50,972 bases of DNA from a virus (IMGVR_UViG_3300026191_000002:1-50972); one strand, 5' to 3'. Positions 5,455 through 50,972 are shown, counted from the stretch's first letter. Notes: generated by a model from the letters alone, not told the origin. Numbers and translations are program-made.

Positions 5455-5457
5455 TCA

Positions 5458-5670
5458 ATGACTAACCAAGAGATCTTAGCTAATGGGCCTGAAGGCTGGA
5501 CTGGTATTTATATTTCAGATGGCTTCTACCGCTGGATTATGGAAGACGGTACTCACTCAAACCTCATCAGCAATGAAGCTTACTGCAACGCCCAAAGTCA
5601 CGAACGAAGCCGCGATGACATTGAGCGAATCGTCTATCTTGAAAGTGTATTGAAGGGGGAAGCAGCGTGA
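5458..5670 (+). CDS. Hypothetical protein
   Basis: AAGGAG RBS; ends EAA overlapping the next GTG. Confidence 0.7.
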   Translation: MTNQEILANGPEGWTGIYISDGFYRWIMEDGTHSNLISNEAYCNAQSHERSRDDIERIVYLESVLKGEAA

Positions 5671-5834
5671 AATTAAGCCACTTTAAGTCTATGTCAAAAC
5701 TTCGAGTGATCTTCTATCTCGTAGTTCTCATCATTTGCCTTGCTAGTTCCTATCACAGTATAAATGTGTACATTGAATGTGAAGGAGAAGTCCTACGAGG
5801 TATGTTCAAACTTGTGTGTGTTGAGGGTAATTAA
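5667..5834 (+). CDS. Small membrane protein (55 aa, not in ORF track)
   Basis: GTG overlaps the previous stop; hydrophobic VIFYLVVLIICLA stretch; fills the gap exactly. Confidence 0.6.
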   Translation: MKLSHFKSMSKLRVIFYLVVLIICLASSYHSINVYIECEGEVLRGMFKLVCVEGN

Positions 5835-6041
5835 GTGAATGACTTTCTTTCCGATCAAGAAATTGAAGAACTTACTGGCGCTAAACAAGTGAGTAAGCAA
5901 AAAGAGATCTTAACAAAGAATCGAATATACTTTGTTGAACGCACAGATGGAAAAATAAAAGTGTGCTGGCACCACGTTCACAACCCTATGGTTGATAAAC
6001 AGTCTGGTACAGATTCGCTAATTAATTGGGAAGCAGCATGA
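5835..6041 (+). CDS. Putative excisionase (DUF4224-like)
   Basis: FLSDQEIEELTG..Q...L....I.F..R.DG pattern; directly upstream of the integrase. Confidence 0.75.
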   Translation: MNDFLSDQEIEELTGAKQVSKQKEILTKNRIYFVERTDGKIKVCWHHVHNPMVDKQSGTDSLINWEAA

Positions 6042-7036
6042 CCAGAAGGAAAAGCCGTAAAGACGCATGGATGCCGCCGCGTGTATACAGAGGTAAATCA
6101 GCTTATGAGTATCACCCTAAAGGGGGTGGTGCTATTAGGCTTTGCAAACTCGATGCAAAGAACTGGGAGGTATTAAAAGCCCACGAAGATGCAGTTCAGG
6201 CGCTTGAAGCTAAAGAGAACCTTTCAGGTTTGGTAAGCGACTTTTTTGAAAGCGCTGATTTCTCTGATTTATCGAAAACTACGCAAGCTGATTACCGCAA
6301 GTATAGCCGTAAGGTTTTATCGGTATTTGGTAAAGTTCACCCCGATAACTTAGAGCCTCGTCACGTTCGCGCTTATATGGATAAGCGTGGTGCTAAATCG
6401 AAGACACAAGCCAACCGTGAAAAGGCTTTTCTTTCTCGTTGCTACCGTTGGGCTTACGAACGCGGCCTAGTTAAACAGAACCCATGCAAAGGCGTTAAAC
6501 AGTTTAAAGAAACTGCCAGAGATAGATACGTTGAAGACTGGGAATACAAAGCAGTATTTGAAAACGCCCCACCCCACGTGCAAGCAGCAATGGAGATAAG
6601 CTATTTGTGCGCGGCGCGTAAAGGTGATGTTCTATCAATGACGTGGGACCAAATACGCGATGAAGGTATTTTCATTCAGCAAGGCAAGACCAATGTAAAG
6701 CAAATTAAGGAATGGACCCCACGCCTTAGAAAAGCTATTGAGTTAGCCAAATCGCTGAGAACGGGAAATATTATTAGCCGCTGGGTTATCTGCCAGGCTA
6801 ACGGGAAGTGTTACACAGGTCGAGGTTTCGATCAGGGTTGGATGGATGCGCGTGAAGCAGCTCGAGCAAAAACCAACATGGCGTTAGATTTCACGTTCCA
6901 TGATTTGAAAGCGAAGTCTATCAGTGATTATGAAGGTAGCACGAAAGAGAAACAGATCTTCTCTGGCCATAAAACAGAGCGACAAGTTAATACTTACGAT
7001 AGGAAAGTGAAAGTTGTTCCTAGCCTAAAAAGGTGA
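6038..7036 (+). CDS. int: Tyrosine recombinase (phage integrase)
   Basis: AARKGD, QGKT, FHDLKAK, SGHK and C-terminal Tyr motifs; adjacent to attP; ATG at 6038 overlaps the upstream stop. Confidence 0.95.
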   Translation: MTRRKSRKDAWMPPRVYRGKSAYEYHPKGGGAIRLCKLDAKNWEVLKAHEDAVQALEAKENLSGLVSDFFESADFSDLSKTTQADYRKYSRKVLSVFGKVHPDNLEPRHVRAYMDKRGAKSKTQANREKAFLSRCYRWAYERGLVKQNPCKGVKQFKETARDRYVEDWEYKAVFENAPPHVQAAMEISYLCAARKGDVLSMTWDQIRDEGIFIQQGKTNVKQIKEWTPRLRKAIELAKSLRTGNIISRWVICQANGKCYTGRGFDQGWMDAREAARAKTNMALDFTFHDLKAKSISDYEGSTKEKQIFSGHKTERQVNTYDRKVKVVPSLKR

Positions 7037-7051
7037 TTATAGCAAAAAAGC

Positions 7052-7305
7052 GTTAGGAAAGTTGTTAGGAAAGGTTGGTCACAAAGAATTAAACGACTGA
7101 CCTTTAAAGTTTTAAAGCGTTGTTTTTAAAGGTTTTTTGATTGGTGCCCGGGGCCGGACTTGAACCGGCACGCTGTTACCAGCGAGGGATTTTAAATCCG
7201 TATGAACAGGCTAGTAAACACACAGGCTTGATAGGTACTGTTCCTAACAAAATTCATTGTTTAAGTGTTTGATTTGTCGTATTTGAGAGAGTTCTTGTTA
7301 GGAAA
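7052..7305. promoter_or_regulatory. Putative integrase arm-type sites (GTTAGGAA) and IHF site flanking the att core
   Basis: GTTAGGAAAG at 7052-7061 and 7064-7073, inverted copy at 7241-7250, direct copy at 7295-7305; AATCAAACACTTA on minus at 7262-7274 fits WATCAANNNNTTR. Confidence 0.7.
7142..7199 (-). other. attP core: 3' half of tRNA-Leu(TAA)
   Basis: Minus strand GGATTTAAAATCCCTCGCTGGTAACAGCGTGCCGGTTCAAGTCCGGCCCCGGGCACCA gives anticodon arm, long variable arm, T arm and CCA; no 5' half. Confidence 0.92.
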
Positions 7306-7329
7306 TAAAAGGCGTCCTTGCCCAAAGAT

Positions 7330-9930
7330 TTATGCGGCGTCTTCAACTCTATAGCTAAGCGGCTTATATCCAGATGTTGCGTTAGAAGCAACTACTAGTC
7401 CACGCGTATCAGAACCAACATAAAGCACAATCATGAACGTTGGCTGAATGCTATCCCTACCGCCTGTTGGTATATCCAAATCACCAAGGCGAGCAAGGAT
7501 CTTACTTCCATCAATTTTAATTGAGTCGCTATTCTCATTACTGATTTTTTTGCCATCTGCAATAACTTCGACCTTAGCAATTCCATTCTGGGTTAAATCC
7601 AAATAGCCACCAGCGGTTACAATGCCGGCAACAGAACTTGGCTTAAGTTGCATAACCTCTCTGTTTGATCGGCCTTTGTAAGCTACCAAGCTGCCCTGCG
7701 TCACCAACTCAAAGTCCAACGTTTCCATTGTGCTCAATATTTCATTTTCCTGTAATGCTGCAACTTCGACTAAAACTGTATCTGTAGATGTTGCACCTTC
7801 GCTATCCTGTGCTTGAACTCGAAACTCTAATGTTTGTGCAGTTAATGAACTAGGTGCCGTGAACTCTGGGGTAGCTGTGTTAGCAAATTCAAGAACTACT
7901 GCATCTGCTCCGTTATCAACCTGTTCCCAACCGAATTGAGAAATTGAACCATCTTCTGGGTCGGTGCTCATTGATGCATTTAATTGAACCCGAACACCAG
8001 CTGCAACTGATTGGTCGGGGCCAGCGTTTGCGACTGGGGGTTGGTTTGGACCTTGAACGGCGAAACTTTGCGTAATTCTAGGGCTAGAATCGTCTTCATC
8101 ACTGGTAACTAGTCCGATTTCATAGCTGCCCGCCACATCGATATTAATGTCGAAATTCTTAGCTGTAGGTTCAGCTATAGTAGCGTTTGAAGTTGCAGGT
8201 TTACTATCTATTGCCCATTGATACTGAATGTCACCCGCTTGACCAAAACCAATACCTTCAATAATGACGGTTATGGGGTCAGCAGCCTCGGCATTCTCTA
8301 TTTCAATGAACGGCACGTACTCACCGTTTAACATGCCGGAAGCATCAACAAATCCACGTTCGGTGTCTTTACTTAAGAGTGATACACGGTCCTCTGTTGG
8401 CATCCAGCGTAAACCGTAGCTTGTGGGTGCTTGGGCTGATTCGCCGTTAGTGTACGAGCCGCCATAACCGATACGGTCAAACGGGTAACTGGTGGTACTC
8501 TCCACACCACCTACTTTTTGAATAACGGTTAACTGTCTATCCAAATCGCTCGAGCTTTCAAAACTGGTGTAAACGACGTCTTGGGCGTCCAGCGCTGAAC
8601 CACGGATGTAGTCTTTGGCAAAACCTGCGTGCGGCTTCCAGTAGTCAAACGTAGTCAGTCGCGCATTTAACCAGGTTACATCCAACATTTTCATGTTGGT
8701 TGATACATCCGGCAAATAGAATCCCTCACGCTCACCAGCTGCTAATGTTAATTCCAAACCATTTGCAGTAAACGCAATAGAACCCTGTCCAGTCATTCGT
8801 TTTACATTAGCAGGCAAAGACGATGCGCCGATAAACGAAATATCCTCTCGTTCAGGGCATGGCGGGTCGAGCAGTGGAAGTGAACCGTCCACCAATTCAA
8901 ATTCCATCAGGCCAATAGCGCCAACCGCAGTAGTAGATGTTCCAGCACCTACAGCGCGGTAAACCTTAAACTTGCGCCCTTGATATTTAAGTGTATCTCT
9001 TAGTACGACTTGGTTAACTGCGTCTGGCCCTCCTTGAGCAGGCTCACCAGCGTAACTTAAACGCGTAAATCCATCGTCGGCAACTAGCACAGGAATAGAA
9101 AAGCGCGGCACGAGTTGCGCGCCCCCTTCGCCTTGCTCTCTTATTTCCGCTAGCGCCAATAGTGAACCATCGTCTTGCTTTACAAGGCTAGACGGGCTTA
9201 GGGTCATCACTAACTCTGGGTTGGTGTATCCAGATACGTTTTCAACTACGCGACCAACGTCTTTCTTCCATACCTGTAGCAATTCCCATTGATTGGTGAC
9301 AACGTCTGTGCCCCATAACGCTGAATAGTCACCTGCAATACTGTAACCGATGTATGTGTGAGGGTAATTGAGTTTACCGTCATTAACATCCCATTCGAAA
9401 TAGCCCGTGTGTCCGGTACCAGCACCGAAACGAGGATCATACGTCAGCACATAACCCTGTCTGGTGAAATTAATACCGTCAGATGATGTGGCTATTGCCG
9501 TTGTCTGCTCCCTAATATCACCACCGTCATAACTAGGGCCACTATTATTATGCGTTGTTAAATAGACCACACCGTCAATGACACGCGCGCACGGCGTTTC
9601 TGTCTGCGTTCCTGCTGAAACCGTATCGATATAAACGGGGTTACCACTGGGTTTGCTGGGCAAATAATCAAAATCACCATTGGCGATAGCCGTGTCGTAA
9701 TCCACCCAATTATTAGAATCTGTCGGATCACCTGAAACCAGCACCGCCCACGTACCACCACTGCCATTTACGTGGTCCGTGGAGAAATACAAAATCCAGT
9801 CATACGGTGCTTGCCAGCCTGTAATATTAGCCGTTGGGATAATCGTTGGTGAAAAGCATCCACGATTAGAGCCTTGACTTGCAGGGCGCTCAACGACAAT
9901 TCCCCTGTCTGTAAATTGATATTTAAGCAT
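7330..9930 (-). CDS. Tail-end protein: putative beta-propeller glycoside hydrolase, lectin-like and PKD/Ig domains
   Basis: LYFSTDH, QTETP and ATSSDGINFT (Asp-box-like) motifs; NQPPVANAGPDQSV PKD motif; ATG at 9930 with AAGGA (track start 9945). Confidence 0.65.
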   Translation of the reverse strand: MLKYQFTDRGIVVERPASQGSNRGCFSPTIIPTANITGWQAPYDWILYFSTDHVNGSGGTWAVLVSGDPTDSNNWVDYDTAIANGDFDYLPSKPSGNPVYIDTVSAGTQTETPCARVIDGVVYLTTHNNSGPSYDGGDIREQTTAIATSSDGINFTRQGYVLTYDPRFGAGTGHTGYFEWDVNDGKLNYPHTYIGYSIAGDYSALWGTDVVTNQWELLQVWKKDVGRVVENVSGYTNPELVMTLSPSSLVKQDDGSLLALAEIREQGEGGAQLVPRFSIPVLVADDGFTRLSYAGEPAQGGPDAVNQVVLRDTLKYQGRKFKVYRAVGAGTSTTAVGAIGLMEFELVDGSLPLLDPPCPEREDISFIGASSLPANVKRMTGQGSIAFTANGLELTLAAGEREGFYLPDVSTNMKMLDVTWLNARLTTFDYWKPHAGFAKDYIRGSALDAQDVVYTSFESSSDLDRQLTVIQKVGGVESTTSYPFDRIGYGGSYTNGESAQAPTSYGLRWMPTEDRVSLLSKDTERGFVDASGMLNGEYVPFIEIENAEAADPITVIIEGIGFGQAGDIQYQWAIDSKPATSNATIAEPTAKNFDINIDVAGSYEIGLVTSDEDDSSPRITQSFAVQGPNQPPVANAGPDQSVAAGVRVQLNASMSTDPEDGSISQFGWEQVDNGADAVVLEFANTATPEFTAPSSLTAQTLEFRVQAQDSEGATSTDTVLVEVAALQENEILSTMETLDFELVTQGSLVAYKGRSNREVMQLKPSSVAGIVTAGGYLDLTQNGIAKVEVIADGKKISNENSDSIKIDGSKILARLGDLDIPTGGRDSIQPTFMIVLYVGSDTRGLVVASNATSGYKPLSYRVEDAA

Positions 9931-11092
9931 TGTATTTTCCTTCACCGATAAACGTTACTGTTCGCCCTAGTTCAAACTCACCGCTGGTTCGAATTGCTGT
10001 AGTGGGTGTTTTGTTTGCAACAGCATTGCGTACACGTACAAACACTGAGCTGGTTGAAGCACCGTCAACTGTTAATTGAAATTCGTAGAGGCCGACTGCA
10101 TCAGCTGTGTAACTGGCATTCTGTTGAGTCGGATTAGTAATTGATGGGGATGAACCTACTGGCGCTTGAGCGATTGTCCAACTGTATGTGCTGCCACCTG
10201 TGGACGCAGCACCGGATAACGCGAACGATTGCCCTACGTATTGAACGGAATCGGTACCCGCGTTGGCAACCACACTGCCAGCCTCTACCGCTGTAATTGT
10301 CTGAGTTGCTGGGTCGCTATCCTCGGCACCATCATTGACAATCAGCGTTAATATATATTCCCCAGCAACGTCCATGGTAAACCTAGGGTTAACGGTATTA
10401 GCATCTAATAATGTAGCGCTAGAACCAGCTGGCACTTGCAGTGTTGATTGATAGGTTAACGTGTCATTATCTGCATCAGATGAATTACTAGCGTTGACTA
10501 CAAACTCATTACCTACCGTACCAGTCGTATTTGTGCCAAGTGCTGCGACAGGCTTGGTGTTCACTGAACCCGCCTGATTTTCAAATGTCACTGCACTCAT
10601 ACCGTAAAAACCCTGCGATAAATTTACAATCGCAGTGCCTACCGTCTGATTAAATGGTTCGTTTGACGTAGAATAAACCACGGCGGCATCAGCGTATGCA
10701 GTAATGCTAGAGCCAGAGGTCACAACGCGCAATGTCGCGGACGCACCAGAATTATGCGTACCGTCATAAAGTACTGTATTCGTGCCCGATACCCGTTTTA
10801 CTACTCGATAGACGCCTGTTGCTAGATCCCAAATTACACGCATGTAGTTGTCATCATTAACGCGCCGAAATTCGAACGAGAAATATTTCCCAGTCGCGTT
10901 AGTGTCGTCATGCCTGAATGAAATAGTCACATCATTGTCGGCGGTCGCATCAACCAATTCAATTTGCCCCGATGCACTATTTGCTATGTAAAGCCCATTA
11001 CCTTGAAACGTCCAGTTCCCACTTATTACACTTAATTCTGGTGGTATTTGACTACCACTCTGGAGTGCTAGATTTAAATTAACCGTAGCCAT
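9923..11092 (-). CDS. Virion-associated protein with lectin-like N domain and PKD/Ig repeats
   Basis: NTKPVA..SSDADNDTLTY..GEYILTLIVNDG and VANAGTD motifs. Confidence 0.75.
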   Translation of the reverse strand: MATVNLNLALQSGSQIPPELSVISGNWTFQGNGLYIANSASGQIELVDATADNDVTISFRHDDTNATGKYFSFEFRRVNDDNYMRVIWDLATGVYRVVKRVSGTNTVLYDGTHNSGASATLRVVTSGSSITAYADAAVVYSTSNEPFNQTVGTAIVNLSQGFYGMSAVTFENQAGSVNTKPVAALGTNTTGTVGNEFVVNASNSSDADNDTLTYQSTLQVPAGSSATLLDANTVNPRFTMDVAGEYILTLIVNDGAEDSDPATQTITAVEAGSVVANAGTDSVQYVGQSFALSGAASTGGSTYSWTIAQAPVGSSPSITNPTQQNASYTADAVGLYEFQLTVDGASTSSVFVRVRNAVANKTPTTAIRTSGEFELGRTVTFIGEGKYNA

Positions 11093-11103: not shown

Positions 11104-14022
11104 CTATACTGTAATTGAAATTGTGTTAGACCATGCGCCAATTAACGCACCGTTTAGGCAACGGCATCTGATCTTGTATGTGCCTGAAGAAAGTGAAACT
11201 GAACGTTTAAAGCAACCAACAACCCCAGGCAATCCAACATTAGGAACATCCAAAGTAGACCAGCTAGAACCACCATTGCTCGATACTTCAAACTCCATGT
11301 CGGTCATAGAGAACCTATTAAGATCGTCCAGTGTTGGGTAGGTTTTTAGAATTTCGATTGAATTGGAATGACCGCCAATCAAACCGTTAGAGGAATAATG
11401 AAACCCTGCACCTTTTTTCTGAGCGCTCATTTGTGGTTTGGTCACACAACGTTGACCGTCTGCGTAACAATTCCAAATTTCAAAGTACGCAGGGCTATGG
11501 GTAGGCGAGAACGTTTCTCTTGTACCTAACGTAGATATAAAAGCACTGTTATTAAGTAGCGCTGCCCCTCTGCGGTGTGTACGAACAATCTTGCAAGAAC
11601 CTTCAAGTGTGCTGTTGTTTATTTCGGTGACGCGCTTTAAATCAGTTATTGCATCAGTGGCGTTTTTACCGTCTAAGTTGTAGACATGGCATGTGTATAT
11701 TTCCCCCGCTTCACCCCAACTACCTACGCCCCAGTAAGGCGCATTAATAACGAGAATATCGCAGTTACCAAATTGGGAGTTGTAGTTACCGTAGTTGGAT
11801 TCAAGACCTAAATCAGCGGTGATATTTCCTAGCTGAGAAATCTTACAATAAGGGTTCTTGTATTCAGGAACTACTGCTGTTTGCCATGTTTCATTTGAAC
11901 CTGTGTAGCCACCTGTGAAATCCATCCCATCTACTTCAAGAGACTCAGCACCTTTCAGAGTAATGCCGTTACGTCTACCTTGAACAGACACGTTTTCAAA
12001 TAAGAAGTGTTTGTATGAGTCACTGCTGTAGGCTCTGTACCCATCTGCTGAGTTAGCGGCCATTTCTTGATTTTGCACATGAACATCAGCGGTGTAACGG
12101 TATTTAAGCCTATCTACTGGTTCAATCTTCCAACTTAAATCTACGTCTGAACCATTAACCGAACCTTCAAGCGTTGGTACTGCAGGAGTTTCCGTTCTTA
12201 ATAGCTTACGTACATAGATATTTTGAACGTTGCCTTTGTACCCCGAAGCCGTTATTTGAACTTGTGTAGCATTAGCTGGCGCACGTATTAACCATACTTC
12301 TGTGCCTTCAATGCTGTGGCTGTACTGGCCTGTTGCACTGCCTATTTTCGGTGTAACCGAACCACTTACCTTATCTACCAGCTTCAGTGATATTTGATAA
12401 ACTTCACCGGCTTCAAAGTTGTAGCTTGCACTTAATGGGTTACTTGTTCCTGCAGCATAATAGTTACCACCACTTTTAGACCAACCAGAACCGCTAAAAC
12501 CATCTGGCTGCACAACCTTAGCGCCTACTTCATCTGAGGCGTTAATAATGAACTTGTGCATATAAATAAGGTCTTCCGTTGAGTACCGGAAGTAATCTAT
12601 TGCCGTTTCACCTGGGTCTAAATGAAGCCATGCTTCTGCAGGCATGTAGCGAAGTGAGCCTTCTTCAGTAGGTAACACTCTTGCCCCGCTAGGTAGAGTA
12701 ACTACGCTTTGGAAAGGTCTTTCAGTACCTTGAACAGCAATAGCATTATCAAGTTGCGGAATGTGCATGTAAGGCAAAACAAGCGTCTTGTTGGCCTTAA
12801 CTTGTAATGTATCTACTGTAACTTCAGCCTTTTCCCCGCGCCAAGCTTCTCCCTCGTCCAGTTCAATAGTTTCGTTATAAAGAACATCGTTCACCATGAC
12901 GTTGTTTAAAACTACCGTGCAAGCGCCTTGGGCCGAGAGGAACGGGAGTGGTAGAAGTGCTTTGTAATCGCCACCATTAATAGTCACCGTGGCATTCGGG
13001 CCAATAACCACGACACCTAAACCCCCGACTTCATCTAGGTTACAGCCACAGTTATTAAGCTCACCGTCTTTGTGGAAGTAGTAACCAAAGCTATCCCCGT
13101 CTAACTGTCGCGTCCAAGAAACCATACAATCTCTTGCGGTAGAGACTTCAAGGAACTCGATACCCGCGCCATCATGGTCTGAGTTAAGACCTTTAACGTT
13201 TACTTCGCACCCAAACTTAAAACCGTTACCGCTAAAACCACTCGTAGACACATAGCGAACTACGGCTTCGCTACCAGCTTCAATCTCTAGCCCATGCAAA
13301 AGCGTGAAGTTTTCACTAAACAAGTGATTTTCATTAACTATCGTCCCCCCAATGACTTCCATATCCGAGTGGCCCGAACGGATTACGATACCGCAATCAC
13401 CTGTACCGGTAACATCAAAGTCTTGTGTCGATACGTTGCTTGAACCTAGGGGGATATCAAGCGCTTTAAATATCGTATTGATAAACGTGAGTTTACGTAA
13501 AATCCAGTCGAACATAGCGTGACCTTGCGTGTCGATAAGGCCAGCATTGCTCAAGACTGCGCCATGAACCTCACTACCTCTATTGTCAGAATTAAGTTTT
13601 ATAACAGGGTCGGAGTCTTTAACTTTTAAGCCGAAGAAACGATGATATCCAGCCCCAAGGATAATAAAGTCACCCGATACGTTCTGCATCCATGGGCTAT
13701 GGTTTTCTAGGTTCGTGTCTATCTCACGCTCACCAACTTGCAAACCAAAGTAGAACGAAAGTGGGTTACCGTTTTGTCCCTTCGTTAAATTCAAATTCCA
13801 AGGTAATGTTCTTGGAGTCCAATCTCTTACTTTGCTGGGGTGTGAGCCGATGTAAAAATTATCCCCTGGGTTTACGCGGTAATCGGGATCATCTTCTTCG
13901 CTACCGGTATAAACACGCTTATAAACACGCTCCAAGTCTTGCGCGGGGTTGCAATCAGCCCACTCTTCACCGTCAGTCCAGCCAGCATCATCGAGTAGGT
14001 TTACATCAAATAGTCTATTCAT
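11104..14022 (-). CDS. Putative beta-helix tailspike/depolymerase with FN3 domain
   Basis: G/N/D-rich coils typical of parallel beta-helices; C-terminal LSSGTYKIRCRCLN..GAWSNT FN3 signature; position after the tail tip. Confidence 0.6.
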   Translation of the reverse strand: MNRLFDVNLLDDAGWTDGEEWADCNPAQDLERVYKRVYTGSEEDDPDYRVNPGDNFYIGSHPSKVRDWTPRTLPWNLNLTKGQNGNPLSFYFGLQVGEREIDTNLENHSPWMQNVSGDFIILGAGYHRFFGLKVKDSDPVIKLNSDNRGSEVHGAVLSNAGLIDTQGHAMFDWILRKLTFINTIFKALDIPLGSSNVSTQDFDVTGTGDCGIVIRSGHSDMEVIGGTIVNENHLFSENFTLLHGLEIEAGSEAVVRYVSTSGFSGNGFKFGCEVNVKGLNSDHDGAGIEFLEVSTARDCMVSWTRQLDGDSFGYYFHKDGELNNCGCNLDEVGGLGVVVIGPNATVTINGGDYKALLPLPFLSAQGACTVVLNNVMVNDVLYNETIELDEGEAWRGEKAEVTVDTLQVKANKTLVLPYMHIPQLDNAIAVQGTERPFQSVVTLPSGARVLPTEEGSLRYMPAEAWLHLDPGETAIDYFRYSTEDLIYMHKFIINASDEVGAKVVQPDGFSGSGWSKSGGNYYAAGTSNPLSASYNFEAGEVYQISLKLVDKVSGSVTPKIGSATGQYSHSIEGTEVWLIRAPANATQVQITASGYKGNVQNIYVRKLLRTETPAVPTLEGSVNGSDVDLSWKIEPVDRLKYRYTADVHVQNQEMAANSADGYRAYSSDSYKHFLFENVSVQGRRNGITLKGAESLEVDGMDFTGGYTGSNETWQTAVVPEYKNPYCKISQLGNITADLGLESNYGNYNSQFGNCDILVINAPYWGVGSWGEAGEIYTCHVYNLDGKNATDAITDLKRVTEINNSTLEGSCKIVRTHRRGAALLNNSAFISTLGTRETFSPTHSPAYFEIWNCYADGQRCVTKPQMSAQKKGAGFHYSSNGLIGGHSNSIEILKTYPTLDDLNRFSMTDMEFEVSSNGGSSWSTLDVPNVGLPGVVGCFKRSVSLSSGTYKIRCRCLNGALIGAWSNTISITV

Positions 14023-35364: not shown

Positions 35365-35909
35365 GCCGCTTCATCCTCTCTCATAGTTGCTCTAACGTGG
35401 CTTATCGCCTCGCTATTCCACAAGTAAAGTTGCTCTAGCACTTGGCTGTAAGCCTCAGATATTTTCACAGGAAGCTTGTTTCCCTTAATGCCTAGCCGCT
35501 TACAAAGCTGAACTTTGCTTGTTGGTTTAATCTCTTGCTCGCCGGTCTTGCGGTTTAGTCGCATAATTGGTGATTTTATTTCGATGATGGCGCAGTTAAT
35601 CATGCGTAACAAGCAAGTGTTACTAACCTCTAGCTCAGCTTTTAGCATAACGTTCAATAACCCAGCTTTAACGCGCACTCTTGCGCTGCTGTCATCGGCG
35701 TAGAGCAATCTAGCCAAGTAGTAAGCATGTGTATCTAGCTTTAGTTGCGTTTCAGGGTTTCGCATTGCCAGTGCGCCAGCCACTTCGTTTACATCAGGCG
35801 CGGTACCACCGAAGCCCATTCCGTCAATCTGTTTTGACTTTGTAGTCATTCTTGCTAGTTCTCTGATTGGGTGTGCCATTGTTGTATTTACCTTTAGCGC
35901 ACGGCTCAT
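35361..35909 (-). CDS. Putative late antiterminator (Q-like)
   Basis: After ninG and before the pR'/tR'-like pair; G.GGT.P...EVAGAL N motif and C-terminal HTH-like segment. Confidence 0.5.
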   Translation of the reverse strand: MSRALKVNTTMAHPIRELARMTTKSKQIDGMGFGGTAPDVNEVAGALAMRNPETQLKLDTHAYYLARLLYADDSSARVRVKAGLLNVMLKAELEVSNTCLLRMINCAIIEIKSPIMRLNRKTGEQEIKPTSKVQLCKRLGIKGNKLPVKISEAYSQVLEQLYLWNSEAISHVRATMREDEAA

Positions 35910-36475
35910 GCCGCTTTTTGTTTCTGCATTTCGCGTACACGCTTGCGATAATGCGCCTTAATGTCTTGTATTTGTTCTATGGTGTAGTTTTTAGGCTCGT
36001 GTGGACCTTCTAGCTTATCTACTCGCTCCTGCCCTATTCTCTTGACCAGGTTTATTCGGTAGCTAATTAGGTTTCCTGAAAGGTGCTGATTGCAGGGAAC
36101 GCACTGACGATGGCAATTATCTTCATCAAATCTCAGTTCGGGCGCACTTCCTACGCTTCGGTAGTGCCCCGCATCGTACTTGCCAGTGTGATACCTACCG
36201 CAACTGATACACGGCTCTTGCGCATCCCTTTCACGAATGTAGGCGTTGAACGATGCTTGCGCCTCCCGCAAATGAGCACCTTTAGTTTTGAGTCTTTCTT
36301 TTTTTGCCTTAAGTCGTTTCGATTCAATTTGCTTACCCTTTTTAGCTAGTTTAGAAACGTTAGCTGCCGCCCACTCTGCAAAACAGTTCTGGTCACAGAA
36401 GGCTTTTAGCTGCCTTAGTAGCATATCACTCTGCAGGCCCTTCTTTTTGCAGTGCGAGCAACGTCTATTCTTCAT
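35906..36475 (-). CDS. ninG: NinG/Rap-family recombination endonuclease
   Basis: AQ..FN.YIRERD...CISCG, DAGHYRSVG and NCHRQC..CN..LSGN motifs; start at MKNRRC. Confidence 0.9.
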   Translation of the reverse strand: MKNRRCSHCKKKGLQSDMLLRQLKAFCDQNCFAEWAAANVSKLAKKGKQIESKRLKAKKERLKTKGAHLREAQASFNAYIRERDAQEPCISCGRYHTGKYDAGHYRSVGSAPELRFDEDNCHRQCVPCNQHLSGNLISYRINLVKRIGQERVDKLEGPHEPKNYTIEQIQDIKAHYRKRVREMQKQKAA

Positions 36476-36839
36476 TAACCCATTCCCTTTGATACATTTT
36501 CTGATACCAATCTCTCGGCATTGGTATTGGACGCAGGTAGGAAAAAGAGCCAAGAAAAGAGCAACAGTTGCCACAATCACAAGGGTTTGCAGGGTTAAAA
36601 TTCTTATTGCACGTTGGATAACGCCTAATCTCACCTGGCTCAATTTTTAAGTCGGAAAAAACGCCAGTGTGAACCATCCAAGGGTGATACTGCTCCACTG
36701 GCTCTTCTCTCACCACTACACGTTTTACGTTAGTGAAATCCCACCCCCATAAATGCGCAAGCGACCTTGCCTCTGAAACCTTCTTCAAGCTCCCATCTAG
36801 CATGCGTACATAACAAACCGTTCTTGTTGGTGTAATCAC
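36465..36839 (-). CDS. Hypothetical protein
   Basis: Coupled ORF in the nin region. Confidence 0.65.
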   Translation of the reverse strand: MITPTRTVCYVRMLDGSLKKVSEARSLAHLWGWDFTNVKRVVVREEPVEQYHPWMVHTGVFSDLKIEPGEIRRYPTCNKNFNPANPCDCGNCCSFLGSFSYLRPIPMPRDWYQKMYQREWVNEE

Positions 36840-40446: not shown

Positions 40447-41187
40447 CTACTCCTTGTTTGCCCAGTTAGACATGACGCGCATGTTTTCTTCGCGTATGCG
40501 TTCTTGGTGGCTTTGGAAGGTGCGGTTAGGTTGCGCATTGGTTTTAGGGTGAACCGATTGCCAGCCATTCATGATGGCTTCGTTGATTAGCTCTTGTGGA
40601 GAATGACCGTCAAAGCGAAGACCGCTTAGTTTTGCAACTAGCAACTCAACTGCGTGAGTAGTCATTGGCTTTTTGATTTTTTTTCTGTAGCTAACGAAAG
40701 CATTCAGGCTTTCAAGAGAAATAATCTTTTCGCGCTTTATTGTTTCAATGACAGATTCAGTAATGACAGGTTCTATACTGACAGATTCGGGTGCAGATTT
40801 TTCACTAGGGGTTAGTGCAGATTTTTCACTAGGGGTTAGTGCAGATTTTTCACTAGGGGGTGGTGCAGATTTTTCACCATCTGGTGAATTGTTTTCACTA
40901 GGTAGGGGTGCAGATTTTTCACCACCAAGCGTCAAGTAGTAAACGTTGCTTGAATTGCCTTTTGGCCCCTTTCTTTCTTCCTTGCGAACCAGTCCTTTCT
41001 TGATAAGTTTATCAATATGGTTGATAGCACTACGGCGAGATATTTCGCAGACTTCAGCTATATTATCATAGCTTGGCCAGCACTCACCTTTGTCGTTTGC
41101 ATTGTCAGCAAGTTTAAGCAGAACCATTTTAGTAGTTGGGCTTCCAGCTTTAACCTGCATAGCTGAAAACATCATTTTAATGCTCAT
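40447..41187 (-). CDS. Replication initiator (gpO-like, N-terminal HTH)
   Basis: KMVLLKLADNAND.G.CWPS...IA..CEISRR motif; internal iterons; C-terminal NGWQS. Confidence 0.9.
   Translation of the reverse strand: MSIKMMFSAMQVKAGSPTTKMVLLKLADNANDKGECWPSYDNIAEVCEISRRSAINHIDKLIKKGLVRKEERKGPKGNSSNVYYLTLGGEKSAPLPSENNSPDGEKSAPPPSEKSALTPSEKSALTPSEKSAPESVSIEPVITESVIETIKREKIISLESLNAFVSYRKKIKKPMTTHAVELLVAKLSGLRFDGHSPQELINEAIMNGWQSVHPKTNAQPNRTFQSHQERIREENMRVMSNWANKE
40749..40922. repeat. Iterons (replication origin within the initiator gene)
   Basis: GTGCAGATTTTTCAC at 40791, 40815, 40839, 40863 and 40908, degenerate copy at 40884; three TGACAG at 15-bp period (40749, 40764, 40779). Confidence 0.88.
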
Positions 41188-45981: not shown

Positions 45982-46406
45982 ACCTTACCCAACGTGAACA
46001 GCAGGTTTATGACCTGATGATAACAGGTGCTAGCCAGCGCACTATCGCCAAAATAATCGGCTTTTCAGTGCGTAGCGTTAAGCAGCACAGCGCACATATT
46101 TTCAAAAAGCTTGATGTTCATTCAACGCGTGAAGTTGTGGCAAAGCACTACATTGGCATGGGTCACGCGAATGAGAACGGAATGCCAGGCGCTGAATTGC
46201 TTTCTAAAGCTGAACGCCGCGTTTACGACCAACTTATTACTGGTGTAAGTCGCAAGCAGATTGCAGCAAAGATTTTCTTATCTGAACACACTGTTCGCTT
46301 TCACCTGAGAGTTATCAGTCAAAAACTAGGCACCAACTCAATGCTTGAAATAGTCATTAAGCACTACACAAGCGGTCACAACACTGAAATGAAGGAAGCA
46401 GCATGA
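45978..46406 (+). CDS. Tandem double LuxR/GerE-type HTH protein
   Basis: LTQREQQVYDL..IA......VK.H...IFKKL and LSKAERRVYD..IA..IFLSEHTV.FHL..I..KLG. Confidence 0.85.
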   Translation: MNLTQREQQVYDLMITGASQRTIAKIIGFSVRSVKQHSAHIFKKLDVHSTREVVAKHYIGMGHANENGMPGAELLSKAERRVYDQLITGVSRKQIAAKIFLSEHTVRFHLRVISQKLGTNSMLEIVIKHYTSGHNTEMKEAA

Positions 46407-46510
46407 ACACGTTTTTATTAGCAATTGGATTGTTTGTTTTGATGGGCGCTTTTGCGTTCTTAGTTGGCGCTTTCATTCGCACTGGCCAAGGCGAGCGTGA
46501 CGAAGAATGA
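46403..46510 (+). CDS. Single-TM peptide (35 aa, not in track)
   Basis: MNTFLLAIGLFVLMGAFAFLVGAFIRTGQGERDEE; ATGA coupling. Confidence 0.6.
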   Translation: MNTFLLAIGLFVLMGAFAFLVGAFIRTGQGERDEE

Positions 46511-46611
46511 ACACGATATTCACGCTAATTTCGATAGCACTAGTGTCACTCTTCTTTATCGCTGTTATCTCAACGGTAGAAGCAATAAAGAGTATCGATT
46601 TTAAGAAGTAA
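46507..46611 (+). CDS. Single-TM peptide (34 aa, not in track)
   Basis: MNTIFTLISIALVSLFFIAVISTVEAIKSIDFKK; ATGA coupling. Confidence 0.55.
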   Translation: MNTIFTLISIALVSLFFIAVISTVEAIKSIDFKK

Positions 46612-46692
46612 ACCGCGCCCCCGAAGGGGCACAAACCACGGCTGCGAAGTTTTGGACAGACAGAGCAGCCATAGCAACGAGGATGATAAACG

Positions 46693-46995
46693 ATGGAAAT
46701 CCGAACCACAAACACTAAAGGCTTATTTTGCCTTCAATGGCGTGATAGTGGCGTAAATGGCAGTGAGCATTTTACTCGCCTAGAAACTATCACCAATTCA
46801 CGTGACACCGATGTAACGCTATGTCGTGAAGGTGTACCTGGCACAACGCTAAACATCGATTCTGATGCCGTAGACGCGTTTTTTGAAATGGCTAACAACG
46901 TCGATGTGCCTATTGATGTAATCAACCCTTTTCCAGCAACTGAAACAGTTACATCGTCTGCCAAGGATGGCAAACCTATAGAGGACGCAGCGTGA
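46693..46995 (+). CDS. Hypothetical protein
   Basis: GAGG RBS; ends EDAA. Confidence 0.7.
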   Translation: MEIRTTNTKGLFCLQWRDSGVNGSEHFTRLETITNSRDTDVTLCREGVPGTTLNIDSDAVDAFFEMANNVDVPIDVINPFPATETVTSSAKDGKPIEDAA

Positions 46996-47153
46996 TTTTC
47001 GTTACTTACAAAGAGTATCACAAGGCGCTTGCAGAAAAGCGTATGTGGAAAGCATTGGGGCTTCACGCAATGGTTGTTAACCGTCCTAACGGTTGGAAAG
47101 TGAAAGTAATCGGTTTAGTTAAAAATATCAAAGGAGTAAGCAATCATGGATAA
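46992..47153 (+). CDS. Small basic hypothetical protein (53 aa, not in track)
   Basis: GTG coupled to the previous stop; fills the gap to recT. Confidence 0.55.
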   Translation: MIFVTYKEYHKALAEKRMWKALGLHAMVVNRPNGWKVKVIGLVKNIKGVSNHG

Positions 47154-48060
47154 CCAACAACTAGCGCCAATTGAAATGTTTCGCCGCGACCTGCAAAAAG
47201 AAGGTTCGCGTTTGAAAGCCAGTTTGCCAGCACACTTACCATTAGAGCGCTTCCAGCGTGCCGCAATGATAGCGGTTGAAAACAACATGGAATTACTAGC
47301 TTGCGACCCTCAAAGCCTAATGACTTCTTTAAGCCGCTGTGCGCAAGACGGTCTTGTACCTGATAACCGCGAAGCAGCCATGGTTATATTTAACACCAAG
47401 AGCGGAAACAACTGGGTAAAGAAAGCTCAGTATATGCCTATGGTCGATGGTGTTCTAAAACGCGCTCGCCAGTCTGGTGAAATATCCACAATTACGGCAC
47501 GCGCAGTTTACGAGAACGACCAATTTGATTACTGGATTGATGAAGACGGTGAACACGTTCAATTCAGACCTAACCTACATGGCGACCGCGGCAGTTTTAA
47601 ACTTGTTTTTGCTATGGCTAAAACCAAGTCGGGCGAGTTGATTGTTGAACCTATGTCAAAAGACGAGGTTGAAAAGGTTCGCATGTCTTCAAAGAACCCC
47701 GACAAAGGGCCATGGAAAGACTGGTATGAGCGCATGGCATGTAAATCTGTATTGCACCGTCTATCACGCCGACTACCTAACAGTAGTGAGATTATGGAAA
47801 TGCTAAAGCATGACCATGAGGGCTACACCTTTTCAAATACTCGTGAAGAAAAGCCTATCAATGAAGCGCCAGTGATAAACGAAAAGCCTGTTTACACGCA
47901 GGAAATGTTTAACGGCGAAGCCAACAAGTGGGCTAACGCAGTAAGCGCAGGGAAAATCACGCCTGAAGCGATTATTACCAAGCTATCGGCATCTTATGAA
48001 GTTCCTTCAAAAGTCCGTGAGCAGATTGAAACCATTGTAGACGTAGCAGAGGAAGCGTAA
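47146..48060 (+). CDS. recT: RecT-family single-strand annealing protein
   Basis: LPAHL..ERF.R, CAQDGL.PD.REA, VYENDQF and GPW..WY..MA.KSVL.RL..RLP motifs. Confidence 0.92.
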   Translation: MDNQQLAPIEMFRRDLQKEGSRLKASLPAHLPLERFQRAAMIAVENNMELLACDPQSLMTSLSRCAQDGLVPDNREAAMVIFNTKSGNNWVKKAQYMPMVDGVLKRARQSGEISTITARAVYENDQFDYWIDEDGEHVQFRPNLHGDRGSFKLVFAMAKTKSGELIVEPMSKDEVEKVRMSSKNPDKGPWKDWYERMACKSVLHRLSRRLPNSSEIMEMLKHDHEGYTFSNTREEKPINEAPVINEKPVYTQEMFNGEANKWANAVSAGKITPEAIITKLSASYEVPSKVREQIETIVDVAEEA

Positions 48061-48062
48061 CC

Positions 48063-49757
48063 ATGAAGCATATTAACGTTACCCAAGGAAGCGAAGCTTG
48101 GCTAAAACTTCGTAAAGATTTTTTCACCGCATCAGAAGCCCCAATGATGATGGGTGATCACAAAAACATTAGTCGCAACCAATTGCTAGATGCAAAGAAA
48201 GGCTGGACCACGATTGTAGACGAGTATCTACAAAAGCTTTTTGATAAAGGTCATGCAACTGAAGAAGCGGCTCGCCCTCTTGCTGCCGCCGATGTAGGTG
48301 AAGATTTATTCCCTGTTACCGGCTCACTAGAGGTTGAAGGCTTATCGCTACTTGCCAGCTTTGACGGTTTAACCATGTTTGATGATGTGTGTTTTGAGCA
48401 TAAGCTTTTCAACAAAACGCTTGCTGAGAACGTGCTTAATAACGTGCTAGAGCCTCACTACTATTGGCAGTTAGAGCAGCAACTATTAGTGTCTGGTGCG
48501 GATAAGTGCTACTTCGTTACCAGTGATGGCACGAAAGACAACTGGCAAGCAATGTATTACGTGTCAGTTCCTGAAAGACGCGAAGCGCTTATTAAAGGCT
48601 GGAAGCAATTCGCCATTGACTTAGAAAACCATGAGCCCCAGGCAAAAGTTGAGAAAACCGTTACCTCTGGTCCAGTACGCGAACTGCCATCCATCAACTA
48701 CAAAATGAATGGCTTAGCACTAGAGTCAAACCTAGAAGCGTACAAGCAAGCAGCAACTGACCTTGTGGCGCTATCTGAAAAGCCTCTTGAATCAGATCAA
48801 GACTTTGCCGATGCAGAAGCGCGTCAAAAGGTTTTCACCAAAGCAGAGAAGGACATTAAAAACGCATGTGATCGCGTTATGGGCGAGATTGATTCAATCG
48901 ATAACTTTGTAAAAGACATGCGCTTTATCTCTGAACAGATTCGCCAAGCGCGACTAGCTGAAGGTAAGCAAATCAAAGCGCGTAAAGAAGAATTGCGCGA
49001 AGAGATTCTTAACAAGGCTAATCAAGAAGCTTCAAAGGCGCTTAACGAGGCGATGGCAAAAGTTAACGCCAAACTGCCCAACATAGACTTTGACCCTTTC
49101 ACGGCCATGAAAGGCAAGCGCACTATTGAGTCACTTCAAGACGCGGCTGACACCGAAGTCGCAAAAGCAAAAATTCAAATCAATGAGTTCGTTGAAGTAG
49201 CACAAGCCAACATGCTTGTTATTGCCGATAACCGCGAGTTCGATTTCCTCTTTAACGACTGGGCCCAAATTGCTTTCAAAGCAACTGAGGATTTCAAGAC
49301 GTTGGTAACGGCTCGCATTGCAACTTACCAGGCTGAACAAAAAGCCAAAGAAGATGCAGAACGTGAACGCATTCGTCAAGAAGAGCAAGCGAAGCTGCAA
49401 CGTGAAGCTGAAGCGAAAGCGCGAGCAGAAGAGCAAGCCAAGCGTGATGCGGAAGAGAAAGCCCGTTTTGATGCTGAGTCAGAAAGCAACAAGCAGTACA
49501 TGGCAGCAACAAACCAGTTAGCACAGGAAGCAACCACCAATGAGCCAAAAGAAGAAGTTCAGCCAGAACCGCAAACGAAGCCAGCGCCTAGCGTGGTTCG
49601 ACAAGAACAAGCACCAACGCGCCAATACTCAGTAATGGAGCTTAACGCTATGGATCAGCTAGCCAAGCTAGTTGAAGAAGCCAACAAGACTTACGCAAAT
49701 GACCTACGCCAGTTCGTTGAATCGGTTAAGGCTAACAACTTGAAGAAGGTGGCGTGA
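48063..49757 (+). CDS. YqaJ/lambda-exonuclease-family nuclease with long coiled-coil C terminus
   Basis: QGSEAWL..R...TASEA, GH..E, ASFDG, FEHK and YYWQLEQQL motifs. Confidence 0.9.
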   Translation: MKHINVTQGSEAWLKLRKDFFTASEAPMMMGDHKNISRNQLLDAKKGWTTIVDEYLQKLFDKGHATEEAARPLAAADVGEDLFPVTGSLEVEGLSLLASFDGLTMFDDVCFEHKLFNKTLAENVLNNVLEPHYYWQLEQQLLVSGADKCYFVTSDGTKDNWQAMYYVSVPERREALIKGWKQFAIDLENHEPQAKVEKTVTSGPVRELPSINYKMNGLALESNLEAYKQAATDLVALSEKPLESDQDFADAEARQKVFTKAEKDIKNACDRVMGEIDSIDNFVKDMRFISEQIRQARLAEGKQIKARKEELREEILNKANQEASKALNEAMAKVNAKLPNIDFDPFTAMKGKRTIESLQDAADTEVAKAKIQINEFVEVAQANMLVIADNREFDFLFNDWAQIAFKATEDFKTLVTARIATYQAEQKAKEDAERERIRQEEQAKLQREAEAKARAEEQAKRDAEEKARFDAESESNKQYMAATNQLAQEATTNEPKEEVQPEPQTKPAPSVVRQEQAPTRQYSVMELNAMDQLAKLVEEANKTYANDLRQFVESVKANNLKKVA

Positions 49758-49981
49758 TGTTTTTAATCGAATATGGCAAAGGTCATTTTATTAACGCAGA
49801 CATTATTACTTCGGTCCATATCGACAAAAAAGGAGTGCGTTTCTACGTTGTGAACGACTATGAAAGTGAATTTAACGTAGAAGAGGGTTACGAGAATACG
49901 TTTTGCAACAACCTTCAGGCGATAAATCAGAACATTACGAACATCGAGTCTGAGCTAAGAGGTATCAGAAATGGCAATTAA
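49754..49981 (+). CDS. Hypothetical protein
   Basis: Coupled ORF; FINAD.I motif. Confidence 0.7.
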   Translation: MMFLIEYGKGHFINADIITSVHIDKKGVRFYVVNDYESEFNVEEGYENTFCNNLQAINQNITNIESELRGIRNGN

Positions 49982-50360
49982 CACTCACGGCCAGCGCATT
50001 CAGTTTGGCAAGCATAAGGGCGAGTTGTTCACTCGCCTGCCGGTAAGTTACTTTAAATGGATGGTTAATGAAAACGCACCACAAGCTGATATCGCCAAGG
50101 CAGAATTTGAACGCCGTGGCGATACCATGCCAGAAGTTGAGCTATCAGGCCATGCAATTGATAACGCGTCCATTCGGGTTAGAAAGATATGGCATGAAAC
50201 CAAGAATGAGAATGAGGGAATTTACTCTTGGCTTCAACGCATGACCAAAGAATCGCTAGAAGCAAACAACGTTCATAACGGCAAATACAAGCATAAAGGC
50301 ATGAAGCTAGTTATTGAGCAAGGTGAAGAGTTTCCTGTTCTAAAAACAATTATGCGATAG
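49971..50360 (+). CDS. Hypothetical protein with FGKHKG (DUF3820-like) motif
   Basis: IQFGKHKGE....P.SY.KWM. Confidence 0.75.
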   Translation: MAINTHGQRIQFGKHKGELFTRLPVSYFKWMVNENAPQADIAKAEFERRGDTMPEVELSGHAIDNASIRVRKIWHETKNENEGIYSWLQRMTKESLEANNVHNGKYKHKGMKLVIEQGEEFPVLKTIMR

Positions 50361-50441
50361 AGGCGGCTTAGGCCACCTCTGTAACTTTTCTTACTAAAAG
50401 GTAAAGAATATTACACCCCTTCGGGGGCTAAAGGGAAACCC

Positions 50442-50630
50442 ATGACTACAATCATAATAAACAACAAGCCAATACGCATTCATGCCACTGTGGTAGCACG
50501 TGTTCAGAATCTACTAGAAGCGGGTGAAAGTATTGAAACGGTGCGCCAGAAAACAGGGCTTTCAAAAGGTCGCGCATCGGCATTAATCGACACTATTCAA
50601 GGTCAAGCACAAATGGGGAGAGTGGCGTGA
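50442..50630 (+). CDS. Small HTH-like hypothetical protein; homolog of 1700-1891
   Basis: Ends AQMGRVA within repeat D. Confidence 0.75.
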   Translation: MTTIIINNKPIRIHATVVARVQNLLEAGESIETVRQKTGLSKGRASALIDTIQGQAQMGRVA

Positions 50631-50972
50631 GTGAATTACAAGACATGCTTCGCGTACAAGCTAGGCTCCACAGAAAGCAAGGTGCTAATGCCTTGGGTGA
50701 TTTGTTCCAATCTGCCGCTCTGGAAATTGAGATATTAACGGAACGCCTAGAAAACCCGCAAGGATTGCAGGAATTGATTTGCGTTGAGCAAATGAAAGAA
50801 ATTTCTTTGCCTGAAATACATCGAGCAAATCAAAAGCTTCACGAACAACTAGCAAAGGCTAATGAGCGTGTTGATGGCCTTGAAAAGGCACTGGCAAATT
50901 GCGCAGATGCTTTGTACGAAAGCAACATAAATCACAAAAAAGCTATTGATAAGATACAAGCAGAATGCATTG
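50627..50972 (+). CDS. Modular protein truncated by the window end (new N module, repeat A, same C module as 3275-3637)
   Basis: GTG at 50627, MSELQDMLRVQ...HEQLAKANERVDGLEKAL... open to the end. Confidence 0.8.
   Translation, partial: MSELQDMLRVQARLHRKQGANALGDLFQSAALEIEILTERLENPQGLQELICVEQMKEISLPEIHRANQKLHEQLAKANERVDGLEKALANCADALYESNINHKKAIDKIQAECI
50846..50972 (+). repeat. 127-bp end identical to internal 3380-3506
   Basis: Base-by-base identity starting at CAACTAGC of repeat A; the preceding base differs. Confidence 0.97.

Follow-up and report, generated by a model that had tools for sequence, protein, structure and literature searches.

Whether phages exchange the modules of their genomes at "linker sequences" or by illegitimate recombination has long been debated in the study of modular evolution, and 20-50 nt of homology are enough for recombination by the Red and RecET systems. 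The promoter-early stem-loop (PeSL) cassettes of T4-type phages are reportedly the subject of a 2014 study by Comeau et al. On the assembly side, the end-to-start k-mer overlap that circular genomes leave in de Bruijn contigs is used to call viral contigs circular. A graph path that runs from a tip into a cycle and halts at the first revisited vertex ends with an overlap of exactly k bases, and this overlap begins at the first base common to tip and cycle.

For temperate phages, De Paepe 2014 (PMC3945230) describes how Rad52-like recombinases (Red-beta, RecT and Erf) recombine short, diverged sequences far better than RecA, with Orf and Rap assisting, and how temperate-phage mosaics often retain traces of flanking homology. 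PeSL cassettes of T4-type phages are described by Arbiol et al. 2010 (PMC2839356).

Here we present an analysis of one IMG/VR record (IMGVR_UViG_3300026191_000002:1-50972), which derives from a temperate Alteromonas phage of the lambda-like type; its whole 50,972-nt stretch is referred to as the window. In our reading, to which we assign a probability of roughly 78%, the record is a graph path that joins the arm of one variant, B, to the circle of another, A, the two being mosaic relatives whose crossover at a short repeat, repeat A, was probably made by short-homology recombination. The record would not correspond to one molecule: the path through the de Bruijn assembly graph would enter on a 3,379-bp arm of the minor variant B, present at about one quarter of the depth, circle once through the 47,466 bp that make up the entire genome of A, the dominant variant, and halt at the first 127-mer already used. 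A and B would be mosaic relatives that occur side by side, both belonging with a lambda-like temperate Alteromonas phage, with a common part of about 3380-6930 (small early genes and the integrase) and with their divergence immediately left of the 22-28-nt in-frame repeat A (QLAKANERV).

Like the end-to-start k-mer overlaps of circular contigs, the overlap seen here equals the largest k (127 in the JGI workflow), adds no real DNA and closes a circle. Unlike them, the end matches an internal position, 3380, and a 3.4-kb tip from a second variant comes first, giving a "lollipop" path, so that end-to-start checks label the record linear. With the lambdoid mosaics of relaxed recombination, as portrayed in PMC3945230, the phage shares a temperate lambda-like lifestyle, a Rad52-like RecT, an exonuclease and Rap, as well as highly similar segments bounded by short homology and intragenic exchange on a scale of about 100 bp. 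It differs in that, as judged by sequence, a single 22-28-nt patch with near-invariant synonymous sites serves again and again, in at least 40 contexts, to join protein modules in frame. The PeSL cassettes are alike in placing short conserved repeats among variable small early genes, where genes are inserted, deleted and replaced; they are, however, intergenic promoter-plus-terminator units of virulent myoviruses, whereas repeat A is coding and in frame and a second repeat, D4, consists of a stop codon, ribosome-binding site and start codon. Identity with PeSL was rejected: 5 promoter-like and 12 terminator-like sites were found in 1-6100 and 46000-50972, none of them at the copies of repeat A or D4.

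Of the named relatives, P24 (MK241539.2), a temperate phage of Alteromonas macleodii, stands closest, and the window has short patches only in common with it. P24 has the same early layout (single-strand binding and recombination genes, small genes, integrase) and carries a MIEKLECTC-type N module before repeat A; three short stretches within 1-3405, about 6% of a 7,300-nt query, match it at 96.5%. Its C module after repeat A differs (right cluster R01), and the remaining genome is largely different. Modular shuffling at short conserved sequences is already known; in the present case it runs via an in-frame coding linker amid small genes with conserved stop, ribosome-binding and start boundaries. 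Such linkers were not described for Alteromonas phages in the literature searched, subscription journals and supplements lying outside its scope.

The terminal 127 nt and the two alleles

The last 127 nt of the window are identical to 3380-3506 at 127 of 127 positions. Leftward, the identity extends by 0 nt, base 3379 being G and base 50845 A, and it opens with the first base of the 26-mer CAACTAGCAAAGGCTAATGAGCGTGT, which is repeat A. The features at this junction are:

3380-3405, plus strand: repeat A at the branch point, a 26-mer coding QLAKANERV, with the same 26-mer at 50846-50871; 3380 is also the first base of the depth-51 contig described below, and 3409 the last base of the arm contig
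3275-3637, plus strand: open reading frame of allele 1 (variant B), 120 aa, with N module MIEKLECTC..., repeat A and C module DGLEKALANC...
50627-50972, plus strand: open reading frame of the 5' part of allele 2 (variant A), with N module MSELQDMLR..., repeat A and the start of the C module
50846-50972, plus strand: terminal copy of 3380-3506, 127/127 identical, a graph overlap that adds no extra phage DNA

The initial annotation had claimed that the identity begins at repeat A and that one C module is fused in frame to two unrelated N modules, and both statements proved exact. The translations read MIEKLECTC...EQLAKANERVDGLEKALANC and MSELQDMLR...EQLAKANERVDGLEKALANC; repeat A begins 105 nt into the first frame (3380-3275) and 219 nt into the second (50846-50627), and on the circle the gene of allele 2 runs on at 3507-3637 to a total of 158 aa. 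Blastn and tblastx comparison of the arm with the loop returned short repeats and a 63-aa gene only, with no similarity between the two N modules.

An exact repeat of 127 nt cannot arise by chance. That 127 is an assembler k, as had also been stated, agrees with the JGI metagenome workflow, which runs metaSPAdes at k = 33, 55, 77, 99 and 127, the last being the largest; the value is workflow-wide, not specific to this record. The terminal copy and its sharp left edge match the behaviour of a path running from a tip into a cycle, so the record would be made up of an arm, one genome and a 127-nt overlap, the repeat itself being an ordinary assembly feature. A direct terminal repeat (DTR) was considered and rejected, since the end repeats the internal stretch 3380-3506, not 1-127. 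IMG/VR classes the 50,972-bp record as linear and CheckV puts its completeness at 96%, values that do not by themselves suggest surplus DNA. The public record would be about 3.5 kb too long (3,379 + 127 bases), would mix two variants and would hide a closed circular genome. A search for contigs whose end equals an internal k-mer would rescue tip-plus-cycle contigs of this kind and flag strain mixtures.

Read depth, closure of the circle and the slot of the arm

The two parts of the window joined at 3380 have the following contents, those of the arm being given first:

1-3379, plus strand: alternative arm of the minor variant B, with early accessory genes and the N module of 3275-3637, assigned from depth and synteny
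23-298: arm gene, phrog_2044
298-1119: arm gene, HNH endonuclease
1116-1703: arm gene, Rv2179c-like 3'-5' exonuclease
1700-1891: arm gene of 63 aa
1888-2361, 2358-2630, 2630-3091 and 3088-3282: small genes of the arm
3380-50845, no strand: circle, the full genome of variant A (dominant), which is a temperate siphovirus of the lambda-like type, assigned from its gene set, closure contigs and the sizes of relatives
6026-7036, plus strand: tyrosine integrase, preceded by a DUF4224 gene at 5835-6041
7142-7199, minus strand: attP core, formed by the 58 nt at the 3' end of a tRNA-Leu(UAA) gene, from the tRNA junctions of relatives
35906-36643, minus strand: NinG/Rap junction-specific endonuclease (phrog_171, E 1.9e-79)
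47146-48060, plus strand: RecT-family single-strand annealing protein (Pfam PF03837, E 2e-39)
48063-49757, plus strand: YqaJ-domain (RecE-like) exonuclease of 564 aa (Pfam PF09588, E 1.4e-8)

The circle measures 47,466 bp (50845-3380+1), the figure given in the initial annotation, and it carries a full lambdoid set: integrase, attP, tail genes, tape measure, major head protein, protease, portal, both terminase subunits, NinG/Rap, an O-like initiator with iterons inside, a CI-like repressor, Ant, and the adjoining recT and YqaJ-exonuclease genes. IMG/VR contigs of the same phage group are 46.7-47.8 kb long, and the circular isolate P24 has 46,945 bp.

A window-wide scan found no complete tRNA, the attP having a tRNA fragment only. 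In two relatives (L024, L026) the high-scoring segment pair (HSP) stops at window position 7199 within a complete tRNA-Leu(taa), which is followed by tRNA-Cys and tRNA-Gly, and one contig of the source run likewise departs from the window at 7199. The fragmentary tRNA, together with the end of the relatives' similarity at 7199, argues that the window has an attP, a phage-phage junction, and not the end of a prophage.

When window positions 1-7300 were compared with sequencing runs, two of the 24 runs listed (X1, X2) held 0.99 of the sampled words and are possible sources, and 16 of the 24 held 0.47-0.52; 14 of these 16 are left out of the evidence, as such a share does not say which half of 1-7300 is present. 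Contigs of four runs (X1, X2, X9 and X15), all assembled at k=31, were then compared with window 1-9000. X1 and X2 are near-duplicates and are counted once; possibly they are the very reads behind the window and so are non-independent for the arm junction. Contigs from this pair cover the arm with 0 differences at 23-1144 (depth 9.3), 1779-2364 (8.8), 2336-3094 (13) and 3066-3409 (12.1), the last of them passing the junction by 30 nt only, under the 31-nt bridging rule. The next contig opens exactly at 3380 (3380-5969) with a depth of 51.3, and is followed by 5940-6933 at 49.8 and 7170-8112 at 36.1. These depths are per-contig k-mer means to which other strains may contribute. Read depth had been proposed as the check on the arm, and in the probable source run it separates 1-3379, at 8.8-13, from the 51.3 found from 3380 on. 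The step from 9-13 to 51 points to a branch at 3380, where a minor variant merges with a major one. Depths of about 36-39 for A and about 12-13 for B agree with these values, the figure of about 38 for A before 3380 coming from subtraction only, and the minor variant seems to have only about 3380-6930 in common with A.

Contigs from two other studies close the circle. One of 1,833 nt (X9) and one of 47,462 nt (X15) match 1856-1899 with 4 differences, as 50595-50638 would, and continue with 207 letters (50639-50845 is also 207 nt, compared by number only) and then with 3380 onward, without the arm. In X9 the 30 letters ahead of the match equal window 50565-50594 exactly, and in X15 the closure lies well inside the contig. 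The circle closure is real and exists without the arm.

Between the arm and 3380-50845 almost no similarity was detected by blastn and tblastx; the exceptions are short repeats and the 63-aa gene, which shares 35% amino-acid identity with 50442-50630. Relatives were collected by way of the RecE-like protein (16 loci) and the arm exonuclease (80 kept of 308). Their common order is RecT, RecE, a variable block, a 62/63-aa gene, variable small genes, the equivalent of window 4400-5198, and the integrase. In five of them or pairs of them (L009, L011/L020, L013/L014, L019, L022), RecE leads to the 62-aa gene (window 50416-50635), then to small genes and to window 4400-5198, and L009 continues to the integrase (window 5835-7022). 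Homologues of arm genes follow immediately after the RecE-like gene in L016 and L023. In no case among the 16 relatives collected with the RecE-like protein do the arm block and 49760-50845 occur in series. Arm genes and 49760-50845 both follow RecE in relatives, which indicates that they are alternatives for one slot, not neighbours. In a source-run contig, the 30 letters before arm position 14 are absent from the 118 loci, and from the window at up to 3 mismatches.

These observations bear on a single real genome exceeding 51 kb in which the C module is duplicated. One phage would then contain both the arm and 49760-50845, and the contig would break off where a repeat of at least 127 nt occurs for the second time. 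The assembly does contain both junctions, five copies of repeat A and paralogous small genes are already found in the window, and a CheckV completeness of 96% would put the expected length a little over 50,972. Such a genome is nevertheless hard to reconcile with an arm at one quarter of the depth of the common segment, with the use of the same slot after RecE and the want of any RecE relative with both blocks in series, with two runs that close the circle without the arm, and with a circle that alone is gene-complete and sized like its relatives; we consider it extremely improbable.

The initial annotation had inferred a 47,466-bp circle with an alternative arm, which is borne out by the break in depth at 3380, the arm-free closure in two other studies and the synteny of relatives. 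It left two origins for this arrangement, co-existing variants or tandem prophages. In the latter, B and A would lie head to tail in one host chromosome with an attP-like junction, and the contig would end at the repeat. The layout of arm, common integrase segment, intact attP at 7142-7199 and remainder is what such an array would give; the contig departing at 7199 runs into host tRNA sequence in the source run, relatives integrate at tRNA-Leu, and B at about 12 with A at about 38 is compatible with B molecules linked to A. The depths stand at 12 : 51 : 36, however, not 1 : 2 : 1, so extra copies of A alone would be required; among the k=31 contigs, no contig or joint connects host DNA to either end, and A occurs without the arm in the runs of two other studies. 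The depths alone are not decisive. The array explains nothing beyond co-occurrence, can be dispensed with and lacks specific support; we regard it as very unlikely and favour co-existing variants. The branch point would then be a natural marker of recombination in progress, with two phages in one sample that differ left of a 26-nt sequence.

Exchange at repeat A and at other short elements

Repeat A recurs in the window, where its 22-nt core (family D3) has five copies, at 2129, 2748, 3384, 3706 and 50850, and two further boundary repeats lie among the same small genes. Besides the copies at the alleles, these elements are:

2129-2150, plus strand: repeat A core within gene 1888-2361, with the AAA variant of the Lys codon (family D3)
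2748-2769, plus strand: repeat A core within gene 2630-3091; HSPs to L016 and L008 begin exactly at 2748
3702-3729, plus strand: repeat A copy within gene 3630-3953, 28 nt identical to 50846-50873
2335-2365, plus strand: gene-boundary repeat of family D4, composed of ...EQLRKEQE and a stop codon, an AAGGAG ribosome-binding site and an overlapping start codon
2607-2637, 3065-3095, ~3253-3277, 3909-3939 and 4394-4424: further copies of D4
1856-1899, plus strand: boundary repeat D5, the end of the 62/63-aa gene over the next gene's start MSEL...; second copy at 50595-50638, 40/44 identical

The source-run contig with the copy at 3702-3729 leaves the window at 3730 for a different C flank. A search for the core that tolerated as many as 2 mismatches and covered the window, P24 and 114 IMG/VR loci (L008-L118 minus the window's own pieces) returned 48 hits in 40 distinct contexts. 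Grouped at 85% identity over the proximal 60 nt, the flanks fall into 28 left and 34 right clusters, and every recurring cluster (9 of 9 left, 5 of 5 right) has a different partner each time. The MIEKLECTC module is found with three C modules (in P24, L115 and the window), and the MSELQD module also with three (in L013/L014, L113 and the window). Sixteen loci had been fetched by the exact repeat, which biases the sample to the repeat itself, not to flank combinations; these flank statistics, like those of HSP ends given below, draw on related, non-independent contigs. The module exchange at repeat A that the initial annotation had seen in the window thus extends to relatives, in which every recurring flank changes partner.

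A separate subset was made up of the 97 sources not fetched by nucleotide pattern (96 loci and the window), 11 of which hold 17 contexts coding LAKANERV exactly. Among the 136 pairs of these contexts, 0 are alike on both flanks, 5 are alike on exactly one (3 left, 2 right), 3 combine an unlike left with an intermediate right flank, and 128 are unlike on both sides (<50% identical). A codon-degenerate scan for QLAKANERV over all of IMG/VR, with 10 positions free, returned 21 matches in 20 contigs; compared with the 26-mer, 16 are identical, 4 have a single changed base and 1 has two. The background frequency of the codons concerned is 0.20-0.43 in the genome. A single nucleotide version amid unalignable flanks fits spread and re-use by recombination, and fits an old protein motif less well; the near-invariant codons could also mark a DNA- or RNA-level function of repeat A. 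These comparisons support repeat A as a putative recurrent crossover point in this phage group, at which N and C modules of small early proteins would be recombined.

The joint may have another basis: repeat A could be kept only as a functional protein motif in a helix, with in-frame products of illegitimate recombination being selected. The repeat is always in frame, a long helix is predicted for it (a poor model, pLDDT 57), and the residues that follow (x-E-L-E) are semi-conserved at the protein level. One locus, L120, is a counter-example in which the same C module is joined to a third N module without repeat A, its homology beginning at window 3413, and the exchange there is thus not tied to the repeat. 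Set against this are the 16 of 21 IMG/VR occurrences that are nucleotide-identical, none being more than 2 nt off with 10 positions free; the flanks, which cannot be aligned (128 of the 136 pairs); and breakpoints that also fall at non-coding and gene-boundary repeats (D4, D5). Selection on the protein motif alone therefore appears unlikely to us.

Searches with the C-module protein yielded 2 confirmed hits out of 176 pattern matches in metagenome_contigs, L120 and L119 (a contig beginning at window 3412), and 0 out of 98 in genome_contigs. An exact 50-mer made of repeat A and the first 24 nt of the C module was found in neither collection, from which the window's own record is possibly excluded. 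The arm junction could be an artefact of chimeric reads or of a false graph join, no phage having MIEKLECTC... fused to DGLEKALANC...; the pairing of left cluster L01 with right cluster R33 occurs in the window only, the 50-mer is absent from two other collections, and the runs that hold the combination are possibly the source itself. Repeat A is, however, at 26-28 nt shorter than both k (31 and 127), a length the graph cannot jump, and a 128-mer and a 31-mer spanning the junction must therefore be in the reads. The junction contig has a depth of 12.1, equal to that of the arm at 8.8-13, which implies that all arm flow enters 3380. In P24 and L115 this N module likewise stands before repeat A, followed there by other C modules, and such fusions are normal in the group. 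We give an artefact at this junction next to no credence.

Under the favoured reading of two co-existing mosaic variants, short-homology recombination is the likely mechanism, homology-driven exchange and its enzymes being inferred. The exchange would proceed by homologous recombination on very short homology, in co-infections or phage-prophage encounters, with RecT, the YqaJ-exonuclease and Rap, all encoded by the phage itself, as its probable enzymes. In-frame products may persist since the joint would sit in a common segment predicted to be helical.

Other short elements coincide with breakpoints as well. D4 is found in 55 distinct contexts in the window and loci, and many HSPs to relatives terminate at D5. 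Repeat A, D4, D5 and a hairpin, taken together as short conserved elements, cover 12% of the small-gene region, and 30 of 68 distinct BLAST HSP ends in that region lie within 8 nt of one of them (binomial p 6e-11, the events being non-independent). A bolder proposal is that repeat A, D4 (EQLRKEQE-stop/AAGGAG/start) and D5 (MGRVA-stop/GTGAGTGAATTA) form a built-in linker system for shuffling by RecT, YqaJ and Rap, which we put forward tentatively and with considerable doubt. If it were true, these DNA elements would be maintained for the shuffling that they permit, of whole small genes and, at repeat A, of protein halves in frame. The outcome would be a natural form of "exon-shuffling", acting throughout the population, by which early proteins of host takeover or anti-defence are diversified. 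With cultivable Alteromonas macleodii and P24, defined short homologies and the phage RecT, exonuclease and Rap, the debate between linkers and illegitimate recombination could be addressed by experiment.

The small modular proteins

Pfam returned nothing above threshold for the modular small proteins, and PHROGs placed them in families of unknown function only (phrog_35568, phrog_19342). Among the 10 arm and junction proteins scanned, none matched Ead/Ea22-like (PF13935) at E <= 0.01; ESM Atlas gave no named family, an Ead/Ea22-like cluster scoring 0.82, under the lead threshold. A single-sequence AlphaFold model of the product of 3275-3637 is helical, with pLDDT 57.3 and pTM 0.34, values too poor for a fold search. 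At the nucleotide level, repeat A resembles D4 (GAACAACTA..AAGG..GAG), and for this reason it may be a former gene boundary that has lost its stop codon.

Short repeats at gene boundaries

The boundary repeat D4, which recurs along the arm (minor variant B) and into the loop (the circle of dominant variant A), takes in the C-terminal coding sequence ...EQLRKEQE with its stop codon, as well as the ribosome-binding site AAGGAG and a start codon that overlaps. At no more than one mismatch, the window and the contigs of relatives together give 55 distinct contexts for the 16-nt core of D4, with unrelated genes on either side. Repeat A, the in-frame coding repeat that joins N and C modules, and D4 look alike (GAACAACTA..AAGG..GAG). 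Two other junctions, D5 and a 16-nt hairpin motif, mark the start or end point of many blocks of similarity to relatives, and the two copies of D5 are identical at 40 of 44 positions.

Short conserved junctions in the window
2335-2365, 2607-2637, 3065-3095, ~3253-3277, 3909-3939 and 4394-4424: gene-boundary repeat D4, CAACTACGCAAGGAGCAAGAGTGATG
1856-1899 and 50595-50638: D5 boundary, where the next start, GTGAGTGAATTA, overlaps the end of a 62/63-aa gene (..AQMGRVA stop)
32-47 (arm) and 50416-50431 (loop): 16-nt hairpin motif, CCCCTTCGGGGGCTAA, ahead of a gene in each

Module mosaics in relatives and in the arm

The C module (DGLEKALANC...) is also encoded, at 81% amino-acid identity to that of the window, by a 45,106-nt metagenome contig (L120, 5860-6216). 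There it is preceded by a third kind of N module, MSFNDDMKNIDFEG..., at a junction without repeat A, and homology to the window begins at window position 3413. Separately, one relative (L016, 8983-10737) is itself a fine-scale mosaic, in which an arm-type exonuclease and 63-aa gene precede ~100 nt from the start of the loop-type MSELQD gene; repeat A comes next and leads into the C part of the 153-aa gene of the arm (96.5% against window 2748-3093).

Within the arm, a contig of the source run, the probable read set behind the window, connects window positions 52 and 1115 through 3 intervening letters (depth 10.2; the shorter side of this joint is just 30 nt), bypassing ORF 23-298 and the HNH endonuclease gene (298-1119). 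Both are included in a second source-run contig (depth 9.3), and the HNH gene block (window 53-1114) looks like a presence/absence polymorphism inside the minor variant.

attP, the tail region and a probable replication origin

The attP core (7142-7199) consists of 58 nt from the 3' end of tRNA-Leu(UAA), and a tRNA-Leu/tRNA-Cys/tRNA-Gly cluster adjoins related prophages (L024, 13458-13778; L026, 14645-14957). One source-run contig departs from the window at 7199, and the sequence past this point is presumably the remainder of the host tRNA. Neither of two large tail-region proteins had a PHROG match at 1e-5.

Features of the tail and replication regions
7330-9945, minus strand: large tail-region protein, 871 aa, with a K319L-like PKD domain
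11104-14022, minus strand: large tail-region protein, 972 aa
40447-41187, minus strand: ORF, O-like replication initiator gene
40791-40922, inside this ORF: tandem 24-nt unit, GTGCAGATTTTTCACTAGGGGTTA, four to five copies

Because the phage of X15, a run from another study, diverges from the window exactly at 7307 and beyond, the data suggest a variable host-recognition module adjacent to attP. The tandem copies inside the initiator gene are probably an iteron origin, in the same position as the origin of lambda.
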